From: Methylotenera sp.
GTDB lineage: Bacteria > Pseudomonadota > Gammaproteobacteria > Burkholderiales > Methylophilaceae
Direction of reading: 5' to 3'
NCBI RefSeq assembly: GCF_036401095.1
Contig: NZ_DASWWA010000027.1
Coordinates: 25,091 to 89,090, forward strand
Length of the DNA: 64,000 nt
Part shown: positions 27,530-31,011 of the stretch, piece after piece
Layout: every line of letters starts with the position of its first letter
Position numbering within the stretch: the first letter of the stretch is position 1
Translations under genes and position numbers: made by a program
Notes under the pieces: generated by a model
What the model was told of the DNA's origin: nothing
Seen by the model: the letters and a program-made list of their open reading frames with translations, nothing else
The model's database searches: none

Positions 27530-29746
27530 TTAGATAGCAGTCAATTTAGCAAACTCTAGCGCCAGCCATTTTAGGCCTTCACGTCCAAAGTTCACTTGCA
27601 CGCGCATATCGTTAGCGTTGCCTTCGTAGCTCACTACTACGCCATTGCCAAATTTATTGTGAGCCACTTGCTGGCCTACTTTCCATGGCATTGCGCTTTT
27701 TTGCGTGCTGCTTTGCTGTTTACTCATCACTGCAGGCAGCTCGTTGTAATCTCTGCCGTAGCCTGATTTTGCCACAGGTTTACTGTTTAAATGTTTGAGC
27801 AGTTCATCCGGAATTTCATCTAAAAAGCGTGAAGGAATGCCGTAGCGTACCTGTCCATGCAACATGCGGCTTTGCGCGTGGCTTAAATACAGGCGTTGGC
27901 GCGCACGCGTTACCGCTACGTACATTAAACGACGCTCCTCTTCTAGGCCATTGGCTTCGTAAGTGCTCTGCTCATGCGGGCACAGGCCTTCTTCCAAGCC
28001 GCTGATAAACACTACTTTAAACTCTAGGCCTTTAGATGCGTGCACGGTCATCAACTGCAAGGCTTCGCGTCCTACGTCTGCTTGGTGTTCACCTGCTTCT
28101 AAACTGGCATGGCTTAAAAACTGTGTAAGTAGGTCTTGCTCGGTTTCGCCATCCGCATTGCTATGGTTACCAAAATCCTGATTGGTGAAAGCTACTGCCG
28201 CCGTGACTAGCTCTTCCAAGTTGGCAATACGGTCTTCGCCTTCTTTTTCATTCTGGTAATGTGCTTTGAGGCCAGAGAGGGTGGTAGCAAGCTCCGCAAG
28301 TTCTGCCAGACTGATGCCATAAGCTTCGTCTACCATTTGCCTGATTAATGCGACAAAACCATCTATGCCCTTGCCGCCAATTTTGCCATTACCTACTTTG
28401 TTAATTGCAGCTTGCCATAAGCTGCAGTTCTGCGCGCGCGCTGCCTCTTGCAGTTGTTCCAAGCTACGTGCGCCGATGCCACGCGCGGGGAAGTTAATCA
28501 CACGTAATAAGGCGGTATCGTCATTAGCGTTGGCAATCAGCCTCATGTAAGCGAGCGCGTGTTTAATCTCGGCGCGTTCAAAGAAGCGCAGGCCGCCATA
28601 TACTCGGTACGGTAAATTGGCAGAGAATAATGCATGCTCCAATACGCGCGATTGCGCGTTGGAGCGGTAGAGCATAGCCATTTCGCCCAGCTCTGTGCTT
28701 TCTGCATGCAGCATTTTAATTTCATCTACAATAAACTGGGCTTCATCATTATCGTTGTAGGCTTGGTACACGCGCACCGGCTCACCGGCACCAGCGCTGG
28801 TCCATAGGTTTTTACCTAGGCGGTTTTTATTGTGTGAAATAATGGCATTGGCTGCATCTAGTATATTGCTGTGTGAGCGGTAGTTTTCTTCCAGCTTCAC
28901 TACGCTTTGTACGTTAAAGTCAGTTTCAAAGTCACGCATATTGCCAACGCGTGCGCCACGGAAGCCGTAAATAGATTGGTCATCATCACCCACGGCAAAC
29001 ATACAGTTGTCTTTGCCGGCCAATAATTTTAACCATTGGTATTGCAAGCGGTTGGTATCCTGAAACTCATCTACCAGGATGTATCTGAAACGGCTTTGGT
29101 AATGCAGGCGGATATTAGTATCACGCTCTAATAGCTCGTAACAGCGCAATAGCAGCTCGGCAAAGTCGGCCACGCCATCGCGTTGGCATTGCTTGTCGTA
29201 TTCTTCAAAAATCTCACGCAGTTTTTGTGAGTGCGGGTCGTAGGCATCAACTGCATGCGCGCGCAGCCCCTCATCTTTACAGCCGTTAATGTAGTTTTGC
29301 ACCTGCTTAGGTGGAAATTTTTCATCATCCACATTCATCAGCTTCATCAAGCGCTTAATCATGGAAAGCTGGTCTGCAATATCCAAAATTTGGAAACTGG
29401 CTGGAAGCCCTGCCTCACGGTGATGTGCGCGCAATAAACGGTTGCACAGGCCGTGGAAGGTGCCAACCCACATGCCGCGCGTGTTGATAGGTAATGATGC
29501 AGTGATGCGCGTGAGCATCTCTTTTGCTGCTTTGTTGGTAAATGTCACAGCCAGCAAACCGGTAGGGGAAACTTGTTCCGTTTGTATCAGCCACGCAATA
29601 CGTGCGGTAAGTACGCGTGTTTTACCGCTGCCTGCACCTGCCAAAATCAATGCAGATTGTTGGGGTAAGGTAACTGCTTCTAGCTGTTTATTGTTGAGGC
29701 CGGCTAAAAGGGGATCTTGCATGGTGGTTTGCGGTTGGCTATTCAT
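27530..29746 (-). CDS. uvrD: DNA helicase II
   Basis: AGAGSGKTRVLT, LVDEFQDTN, VGDDDQSIYGFRGA, LEENYRS, TVHASKGLEF and EERRLMYVAVTRA motifs. Confidence 0.97.
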   Translation of the reverse strand: MNSQPQTTMQDPLLAGLNNKQLEAVTLPQQSALILAGAGSGKTRVLTARIAWLIQTEQVSPTGLLAVTFTNKAAKEMLTRITASLPINTRGMWVGTFHGLCNRLLRAHHREAGLPASFQILDIADQLSMIKRLMKLMNVDDEKFPPKQVQNYINGCKDEGLRAHAVDAYDPHSQKLREIFEEYDKQCQRDGVADFAELLLRCYELLERDTNIRLHYQSRFRYILVDEFQDTNRLQYQWLKLLAGKDNCMFAVGDDDQSIYGFRGARVGNMRDFETDFNVQSVVKLEENYRSHSNILDAANAIISHNKNRLGKNLWTSAGAGEPVRVYQAYNDNDEAQFIVDEIKMLHAESTELGEMAMLYRSNAQSRVLEHALFSANLPYRVYGGLRFFERAEIKHALAYMRLIANANDDTALLRVINFPARGIGARSLEQLQEAARAQNCSLWQAAINKVGNGKIGGKGIDGFVALIRQMVDEAYGISLAELAELATTLSGLKAHYQNEKEGEDRIANLEELVTAAVAFTNQDFGNHSNADGETEQDLLTQFLSHASLEAGEHQADVGREALQLMTVHASKGLEFKVVFISGLEEGLCPHEQSTYEANGLEEERRLMYVAVTRARQRLYLSHAQSRMLHGQVRYGIPSRFLDEIPDELLKHLNSKPVAKSGYGRDYNELPAVMSKQQSSTQKSAMPWKVGQQVAHNKFGNGVVVSYEGNANDMRVQVNFGREGLKWLALEFAKLTAI

Positions 29747-29925
29747 AGTCGATATTTTAGCATGACTACTTAATGCGAATATTTCATATGTGGCGACAAC
29801 TTATGTATGTTTTGCATGTATGCGCTGGAGTTGTATTGCAACTCAGCTGATACCAGTGGCTTGCTTTGTTGAGGGAGGTAGAGCAGTGGCTGAGAATAGG
29901 GGTGATATAAAAAACAAAAGTGTTT

Positions 29926-29954
29926 GGAACTTATTTTGAAAAGGCTTAGTCAGA
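29926..29954 (+). promoter_or_regulatory. SigmaE (RpoE/AlgU)-type promoter
   Basis: GGAACTT (29926-29932), 16-nt spacer, GTCAGA (29949-29954). Predicted +1 at about 29960-29961, the first base of the first hairpin. Confidence 0.65.
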
Positions 29955-29960
29955 GCTTAC

Positions 29961-30067
29961 AGGTAACGCAAGTTACCTTTCCGCTCCAATCCTCCCTGAG
30001 CGGAAGCCTTAGACGATGAGGCATTTTTTGGACCCCGATTTCATCCCCTTGGTTGGGGTCTTTTTTT
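29961..30067 (+). ncRNA. Candidate small regulatory RNA (four stem-loops)
   Basis: Hairpins AGGTAAC-GCAA-GTTACCT, TTCCGCTC-CAATCCTCCCT-GAGCGGAA, GCCT-TAGACGATG-AGGC and GACCCC-(GATTTCATCCCCTTGGTT)-GGGGTC followed by T7. No ORF covers it. Confidence 0.65.
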
Positions 30068-30207
30068 GCCTGCTATTTATGCAAAGGCTTAATTTATAAG
30101 CATTAGTATAAACTTAAATCTTACTAATTGTAAATAACTTGTAAATGATTTGTAAATTAATTGCTGTATGGTTTTAAACCTAAGTAATTAGGTGTAGCTT
30201 AGTAGTT

Positions 30208-31011
30208 ATGAAGCCAAACATTAAACTCCCAGTATTGTTCATTTCTCATGGTGGTGGGCCGTGGCCGTATATTGAAGATATGCGTCAGCGCTTTGCCGTT
30301 ACAGAGGCTGAGTTGGCCAAACTGCCTGCCAGCTTACCAGCAAAACCCAAGGCGATTTTGGTGATTACAGGTCATTGGGAAGAGCCGCAGTTTACGGTAT
30401 CCACAGCCCAGCAGCCGCCTATGGAGTATGATTATTTTGGCTTCCCCGAGCATACCTATCATGTGCAGTATCCTGCAGCGGGGAGTCCTGCCTTAGCTAA
30501 GCGCGTGGGCGAGCTGTTGGCATTAAGCGGCGTGAAGGTGCTTGAAGACGAGCAGCGTGGTTTTGATCACGGTGTTTTTGTGCCCATGATGCTGATGTAT
30601 CCGCATGCAGATATTCCTGTGGTGATGCTATCAATGAAAACCACTTATGATCCACTTGAGCATATCAAGCTGGGTGAAGCGCTTGCGCCGCTGAGAGAGG
30701 AAGGTGTGTTGATTGTTGGCAGTGGGCTTACTTATCATAATATGCGTGGTTTCGGCCGGCCGGTATCGTTTGAGCCTTCAGTACAGTTTGAGCAGTATTT
30801 ATATGAAGCGATTGCTAATTCTAGCCCACAGCAGCGAAATAAAGCCTTGGCAGATTGGGAGCAGGCGCCATTTGCGCGTTTGGTGCATCCGCGCGAGGAT
30901 CACTTAATCCCTTTAATGGTGGTAGCTGGTGCGGCAGCTGATAGTGTGGGAGAGCGTATTTTTACTGATACTGTGTTTGATGTGGTAATGGCTTCTTACC
31001 GTTTTGGCTAA
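30208..31011 (+). CDS. DODA/LigB-type class III extradiol ring-cleavage dioxygenase
   Basis: FISHGGGP, TGHWE, YDY.GFP, RGFDHG, GSGLTYHN and HPREDHLIPL motifs. Confidence 0.9.
   Translation: MKPNIKLPVLFISHGGGPWPYIEDMRQRFAVTEAELAKLPASLPAKPKAILVITGHWEEPQFTVSTAQQPPMEYDYFGFPEHTYHVQYPAAGSPALAKRVGELLALSGVKVLEDEQRGFDHGVFVPMMLMYPHADIPVVMLSMKTTYDPLEHIKLGEALAPLREEGVLIVGSGLTYHNMRGFGRPVSFEPSVQFEQYLYEAIANSSPQQRNKALADWEQAPFARLVHPREDHLIPLMVVAGAAADSVGERIFTDTVFDVVMASYRFG

Follow-up and report, generated by a model that had tools for sequence, protein, structure and literature searches.

The closest described relative of the element considered here is the hemB/anti-hemB motif, which came out of a computational search in 2007 and was suggested to represent a non-coding RNA (Weinberg et al. 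2007, PMC1950547). Its representative in Burkholderia cenocepacia J2315, designated ncS04, is a 105-nt transcript with a mapped start (PMC5688073) and co-purifies with Hfq in that organism (PMC5688073, PMC4603805; Sass et al. 2015, 2017). In a Methylotenera sp. genome, the 461-bp gap between a gene for a UvrD helicase and one for a LigB-type dioxygenase holds a small-RNA gene which, as judged from its sequence, is a slightly divergent Methylotenera orthologue of anti-hemB/ncS04, that is, a member of an already described family (RF02837 in Rfam). The gap lies in a stretch of 64 kb, hereafter the window, by which we mean the whole of the DNA that was analysed. The preliminary description of this DNA had pictured a promoter, a chain of four hairpins, a T7 terminator, an RNA of about 107 nt and two C/U-rich loops, all of which are present at the positions listed in Table 1.

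MicA and RybB of Enterobacteriaceae depend on both sigma-E and Hfq and repress the mRNAs of outer-membrane proteins, and ErsA of Pseudomonas aeruginosa depends on AlgU (sigma-22). The RpoE/AlgU consensus reads GGAACTT-N16-TCAAA in Escherichia coli and GAACTT-N16/17-TCTGA for AlgU of P. aeruginosa. The window RNA is analogous to MicA and RybB in its sigma-E-type promoter, in being a short terminated RNA of Hfq type and in its presumed role in envelope stress, but its candidate seeds lie in hairpin loops and are anti-Shine-Dalgarno-like, whereas MicA and RybB use a single-stranded 5' end. With ErsA it shares an envelope-stress sigma promoter of the GAACTT-N16/17-TCTGA type, the difference being that the Rfam scan of the window element reported below gave no match to it. 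The RNAs of RF02278 ('toxic small RNA'; ncS03, ncS05 and ncS27 of B. cenocepacia), together with CT_433 and CT_521 of Bordetella pertussis, resemble the window element in exposing C/U-rich loops or seeds against ribosome-binding sites and in an Hfq dependence that is presumed here (PMC12235514); they have another architecture and another conserved core, and no sigma-E promoter is reported for them.

With a probability of about 0.72, we consider that the window element is an anti-hemB/ncS04 orthologue and an independent gene of about 107 nt, with a sigma-E promoter and an intrinsic terminator, the RNA of which would pair in trans with ribosome-binding sites with the aid of Hfq. Envelope stress would free RpoE from RseA, and the free RpoE would transcribe the small RNA. 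Together with Hfq, this RNA would then pair in trans with a set of mRNAs and lower their translation; contact would be made between purine-rich ribosome-binding sites and the two exposed C/U-rich loops, that of hairpin 2 with CCUCCCU and that of the terminator with UCCCCUU. Described in 2007 and with no function assigned to it since, the family carries a conserved RpoE-type promoter, and this makes the proposal a concrete and cheap hypothesis.

Membership of the anti-hemB/ncS04 family

At gathering thresholds, the Rfam scan gave no match in the 64-kb window. A permissive scan covering positions 29740–30215 (E up to 10) retrieved RF02837 (anti-hemB) at 29978–30067 on the + strand, over model positions 1–81 of 81 and with 43.2 bits (E = 7e-9). 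No match to MicA, RybB, ErsA or sX13 was found in the same interval at E up to 10, and RF02278 reached 12.9 bits on the window element against a cut-off of 50 (E = 7). The preliminary description had not recognised the element as a described family and had itself named the Rfam search as a check; the full-model match removes this novelty. The earlier interpretation is therefore partly supported, being right on the kind of element and wrong on its belonging to no described family.

The structural hallmarks of RF02837 are all present, namely a C/U-rich loop on a CCGC/GCGG stem, a GCCUU/AAGGC hairpin and an intrinsic terminator, and the best-aligned part of the match is hairpin 2. Besides the full-length match to the model, the window copy has in common with anti-hemB/ncS04 the CCUCCCUGAGCGG-core hairpin, the GCCUU/AAGGC hairpin and the terminator. 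Its predicted length (107 nt) fits the mapped length of ncS04 (105 nt; PMC5688073), and a search of the whole genome with RF02837 returned a single strong copy. It differs in standing divergent from uvrD and not at hemB or engB, in its score, in a loop that begins with CCAAU where the family has UUCUUU, and in a longer linker; moreover, the conserved 5' hairpin has no counterpart in the Rfam model.

One point counts against this assignment, since at 43.2 bits the window copy misses the RF02837 gathering cut-off of 49.5 bits, which is an operational threshold and not a biological feature. A copy of the family was found in 39 of 41 relatives, with 32 above the cut-off, and in all of the congeners sampled (24/24), 20 of which exceed it with 50–65 bits. 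It is because of local divergence, in the 5' half of the loop and in the linker, and not because it belongs to a different family, that the window copy falls below; indeed, the congener copies above the cut-off occupy the uvrD-linked slot wherever the locus extends to uvrD. When a covariance model including the 5' hairpin was used, the sub-threshold copies obtained at least 117 bits where tested. 

Four of the 24 congeners, as well as this genome, carry genuine anti-hemB copies at 42.7–49.1 bits, which are missed by annotation at the Rfam threshold. For the present genome the gain is one of routine annotation, a real small-RNA gene having been missed with a score just under the Rfam cut-off.

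Four-hairpin structure and its covariation

On the + strand the RNA folds with -44.1 kcal/mol (z = -4.98), none of 200 shuffles being as good, and the fold is exactly the four-hairpin structure. Transcription of the opposite strand was considered and rejected, as the fold of the - strand is unremarkable (z = -1.84) and frequent G-U pairs speak against it: at two positions, UG pairs occur in 34 and 65 sequences of the 76 distinct homologues aligned as described below, which on the opposite strand would read as A-C mismatches. Because of these frequent G-U pairs, the + strand is taken to be the transcribed one. The 31 homologues that were folded, from 17 genera, have this four-hairpin arrangement or a near variant. 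Nearly all of them have a 5' hairpin at the position of hairpin 1, with sequences that are completely different between lineages.

A covariance model with the four-helix structure was built from eight short-hairpin congeners. It aligned 95 matches, 76 of them distinct, coming from the 31 homologue loci and from 69 Methylophilaceae uvrD loci. The 5' hairpin falls into two length classes, which MAFFT followed by RNAalifold could not align, whereas the covariance-model alignment did. Among the 76 distinct homologues, standard pairs are formed in 95.9% of the cells, versus 82.8% in shuffled alignments and 33–51% when the partners are slid by 1–3 columns. Compensatory changes, affecting both sides, were observed in 22 of the 31 pairs, and 0/500 shuffles reach any of the observed measures. 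In hairpin 1 all seven pairs have changed on both sides and 89.1% of the cells pair; the corresponding share of pairing cells is 98.5% in hairpin 2, 98.4% in hairpin 3 (compensatory change in 4/6 pairs) and 96.8% in the terminator (8/10 modelled pairs). The alignment was fitted to the model and is thus biased toward the structure; nevertheless, given the slide control and the wholly different sequences of helix 1, we regard the covariation result as robust.

At least 90% conserved in the same homologues are the segments CCGCU, CCUCCCU and GAGCGG of hairpin 2, GCCUU...AGGC of hairpin 3, the CC-C-UU core of the terminator loop and the U tail. The four-hairpin RNA structure is, on these comparisons, well supported. 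The preliminary description had proposed a self-contained small-RNA gene made of four hairpins and a terminator, with C/U-rich loops, and had suggested a covariance model from Methylophilaceae homologues as a check: the covariation in 76 distinct homologues bears out the former, stems and loop cores are conserved in the model alignment, and the cores retained in the loops are CCUCCCU and CC-C-UU. The Rfam RF02837 model would need an extension of about 25 nt at its 5' side in order to take in the fourth, covarying hairpin.

A small peptide was also considered as the product of the locus and rejected. A 27-codon frame opens with an ATG in hairpin 3 and runs past the terminator; the ATG is missing in many congeners, where ACAATAAGG is found instead.

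Sigma-E-type promoter and genomic context

The promoter of the window element, GGAACTT-N16-GTCAGA, matches the RpoE/AlgU consensus, and the pattern GGAACT[TA]-N15-17-GTCNNA has only 2 occurrences in the 2.68-Mb genome. The strict motif GAACNN-N16/17-TCNNA was detected in 26 of the 31 homologue upstreams and in 69 of the 80 distinct upstreams of the larger set, with a background rate of 0.35% of the 75-nt windows from the same loci, and its distance to the RNA follows the 5' hairpin class of the RNA. Nine of the 11 exceptions retain GAACTT-N16/17-TC, deviating only at the last position of the -10 element. The commonest forms are GAACT(A/T) with TCTGA or TCAGA; at the -10 element, TCTGA was counted 27 times, TCAGA 16 and TCTTA 11, next to other variants. 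In no fewer than 17 genera of the order an RpoE-type promoter is kept, independently of which genes adjoin the RNA. In one Methylotenera metagenome-assembled genome (L103:1351-1410), a 12-nt tandem repeat, TTCAGACCTTGG, in at least three copies replaces the sigma-E-type promoter upstream of the RNA copy.

The machinery expected for such a promoter is encoded in the genome. Its rpoE (TIGR02939, 313.8 bits, cut-off 236) is followed by rseA, rseB, rseC and a gene for a degP/mucD-like protease, and is itself preceded by GGAACTT-N16-GTCTCT. The sigma-E/AlgU type assigned to the promoter in the preliminary description stands, the motif recurring both in the homologue upstreams and at the genome's own rpoE. 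Genome-wide, a relaxed motif gave 29 matches, 13 of which are intergenic, an enrichment given that only about 11.5% of the genome is non-coding. 

Two of these intergenic sites are of note. Outside the window, GAACTT-N16-TCGAA lies 43–44 nt upstream of an rpoH-like sigma gene (C16:62683-62709), and GAACTT-N16-TCTTA 43–44 nt upstream of a gene for a trypsin-like protease with TPR repeats (C7:41788-41814). Both genes are thereby candidates for the RpoE regulon of the present Methylotenera; rpoH is a classic sigma-E target in E. coli.

In the openly accessible literature, no paper linking anti-hemB/ncS04 to RpoE or describing its sigma-E-type promoter was found, and the family-wide promoter is, as far as can be told, unpublished.

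As for the location, the typical site of RF02837, upstream of hemB on the opposite strand, is not universal, and it is not the site here. Within Methylophilaceae the RNA gene is divergent from uvrD, with 81–350 nt from the uvrD start to the RNA 5' end, in 64 of 69 loci; of the five exceptions, three are truncated at the end of a contig. Wherever a congener locus extends as far as uvrD, the RNA occupies this same slot in this same orientation. The gene is independent of its neighbours: downstream of it the adjoining gene varies among congeners, and the neighbour of the RNA in other families of the order is hemB, a gene for an EngB-type GTPase or one for a cytochrome c. In the present genome hemB (C1:202334-203251) and the pair of cytochrome c and engB genes (C17:30119-31521) are unlinked, on different contigs, and the whole-genome search with RF02837 found no copy of the RNA beside hemB or engB.

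Two propositions, taken jointly, seem to us on balance probable. In Methylophilaceae, the gene and its promoter would together have left the hemB/engB locus for that of uvrD; and anti-hemB/ncS04 would be the missing sigma-E-dependent small-RNA arm of the Betaproteobacteria envelope-stress response, functional counterpart of MicA, RybB and ErsA. Because the promoter travelled with the RNA when the locus changed, the gene would be autonomous and trans-acting, neither a dioxygenase leader nor a hemB antisense. Likewise, the cis-antisense reading of anti-hemB is weakened, since in an entire bacterial family the RNA is remote from hemB. Should the proposed sigma-E arm be true, the name anti-hemB, and with it the reading as an 'antisense regulator of hemB', would be misleading. 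The proposal bears on a gap noted in October 2026, namely that Burkholderia has no known sigma-E small RNA of the RybB/MicA kind: in B. cenocepacia no RybB homologue was found, and the RpoE pathway is poorly characterised (preprint, 10.64898/2026.10.08.756501). What is added here to the family is the relocation to uvrD in Methylophilaceae, the covariation of the fourth, 5' hairpin, and the case of a genuine member lying under the Rfam cut-off.

Table 1. Predicted features of the RNA gene and flanking genes, in window coordinates.
Feature	Position	Strand	Remarks
UvrD helicase gene	27530..29746	-	product with 99% identity to the M. oryzisoli La3113 counterpart
-35 element GGAACTT	29926..29932	+	sigma-E type (RpoE/AlgU, extracytoplasmic function, ECF); GAAC invariant in the genus alignment, surroundings vary
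-10 element GTCAGA (TCAGA core)	29949..29954	+	16 nt past the -35 element; TC invariant in the genus
Predicted transcription start	29961	+	A of conserved (A)CA(G/T), about 7 nt past the -10 element; placed by spacing and by ACAG/ACAT conservation in the genus
Predicted RNA	29961..30067	+	107 nt
Hairpin 1	29961..29978	+	7 bp, GCAA loop; from the fold; outside the 81-position Rfam model
Hairpin 2	29979..30005	+	8 bp, 11-nt loop CAAUCCUCCCU at 29987-29997; main candidate seed, complementary to AGGGAGG-type ribosome-binding sites
Hairpin 3	30006..30022	+	GCCUUA / UGAGGC, 5-nt loop; from the fold
Single-stranded linker AUUUUUU	30023..30029	+	U-rich, unpaired in the fold; U-rich linker conserved; possible Hfq contact, by inference only
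Hairpin 4, intrinsic terminator	30030..30061	+	11 bp, 10-nt loop UCAUCCCCUU at 30041-30050, second candidate seed
T7 tail	30061..30067	+	end of the terminator; whole terminator unit 30030..30067
LigB-type dioxygenase gene	30208..31011	+	

Loops, candidate targets and competing explanations

The model of pairing with ribosome-binding sites follows from the design of the RNA and from precedents. Besides the co-purification of ncS04 with Hfq, Sass et al. reported that in some of their candidate small RNAs the unpaired regions contain sequences reverse-complementary to ribosome-binding sites (PMC5688073), and RIL-seq of B. pertussis showed Hfq-dependent small RNAs with C/T-rich seeds to bind motifs similar to the Shine-Dalgarno sequence (PMC12235514). 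The genome of the present Methylotenera encodes hfq, and we expect its product to bind the RNA and to assist repression by occlusion of ribosome-binding sites.

Alongside the sub-threshold score discussed above, several further points weigh against this explanation, and a first group of them comes from the search for targets. The ranking obtained with RNAduplex for the two loops versus about 14,000 candidate translation-start regions was noisy, most of it being taken up by false starts inside genes and by long duplexes with bulges. A scan for 8-mer complements was far too noisy, and a stricter 7-mer scan at ribosome-binding-site distance left about 20 candidates, which include the genes for a TonB-dependent receptor (C17:60642), exbB, amtB, lemA, an F-type platform protein of type II secretion, rcpC and rcpA. 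The preliminary description had expected outer-membrane or transporter mRNAs as targets. Envelope proteins are not significantly enriched among these 7-mer candidates (10/20 vs 36.5%, p = 0.15). Of 31 congeners only 7 have the Tad operon, to which rcpC and rcpA belong; close relatives keep the pairing that extends past the Shine-Dalgarno core, and distant ones have lost it. On the side of the promoter, three further ECF-like sigma genes are present in the genome, and the motif alone is no proof of sigma-E dependence. In B. cenocepacia, moreover, the levels of ncS04 are flat in biofilm, stationary phase, starvation, osmotic stress, low pH and low iron (PMC5688073, Table 2). A different RNA of B. 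pertussis, suspected to be driven by sigma-E, was unaffected by the deletion of rseA (PMC12235514), which calls for caution.

The two pilus genes deserve a separate remark. The Tad/Flp genes rcpC and rcpA are consecutive (C21:86288-88904) and their ribosome-binding sites are complementary to two different loops of the RNA, rcpC (C21:86288) matching loop 4 perfectly over 10 nt (AAGGGGAUGA) and rcpA (C21:87354), the secretin gene, matching loop 2 over 8 nt (UCAGGGAG). As a core target the pair was rejected, the operon being rare among congeners and the extended pairing poorly conserved.

The same observations, i.e., the additional ECF-like genes, the flat levels of ncS04 (PMC5688073) and the independence from RseA of the suspected sigma-E small RNA of B. 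pertussis (PMC12235514), favour the rival that fares best, in which a genuine anti-hemB-family RNA is transcribed by another sigma factor, either the housekeeping one or another GAAC-type ECF factor, and lies outside the envelope-stress response. We hold this to be unlikely. Both promoter elements and their spacing fit the RpoE/AlgU consensus across 17 genera, GGAACTT-N16-GTC is shared with the upstream region of the genome's own rpoE, a sigma-E-type motif is found at the rpoH-like gene too, and a scan of the + strand ahead of the RNA gave no sigma-70-like promoter.

A cis-acting role, whether as a leader or attenuator of the dioxygenase gene, as a divergent element interfering with uvrD or as an antisense regulator of hemB, is very improbable. 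The element does stand ahead of the dioxygenase gene and shares its strand, the synteny with uvrD is conserved across Methylophilaceae, and a 2026 preprint takes anti-hemB as a regulator of hemB (10.64898/2026.09.01.748597). On the contrary, a strong terminator and then a 140-nt AT-rich spacer precede the dioxygenase gene, which adjoins the RNA in only one other congener locus, and the RNA is transcribed away from uvrD, its 5' end keeping the above distance of 81–350 nt from the uvrD start. As for hemB, it is located on another contig and the loops find no more than a GAGG match in its translation-start region, on which ground it was also rejected as a target in this genome; finally, the same RNA adjoins different genes in different families.

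Hardly to be expected is a decoy or sponge, with loops mimicking the 16S rRNA 3' end or a protein-binding site and titrating a protein or another RNA: the CCGC/GCGG stem and GCCUU...AGGC are almost invariant across the order, beyond what pairing needs, which could reflect protein contact, but no candidate partner is known, the C/U-rich loops, U-rich linker, U-tailed terminator and co-purification of ncS04 with Hfq make up the design of an Hfq-type base-pairing RNA, and RIL-seq of small RNAs with C/T-rich seeds in Bordetella gave the ribosome-binding sites of mRNAs.

A last observation concerns the AT-rich spacer between the terminator and the dioxygenase gene. Near positions 30128–30157, sigma-70-like matches on the - strand are no more than expected by chance. 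The same interval of the window carries three copies of TTGTAAAT with an exact spacing of 11 bp (starts at 30128, 30139 and 30150), a helical phasing that suggests an array of transcription-factor binding sites.

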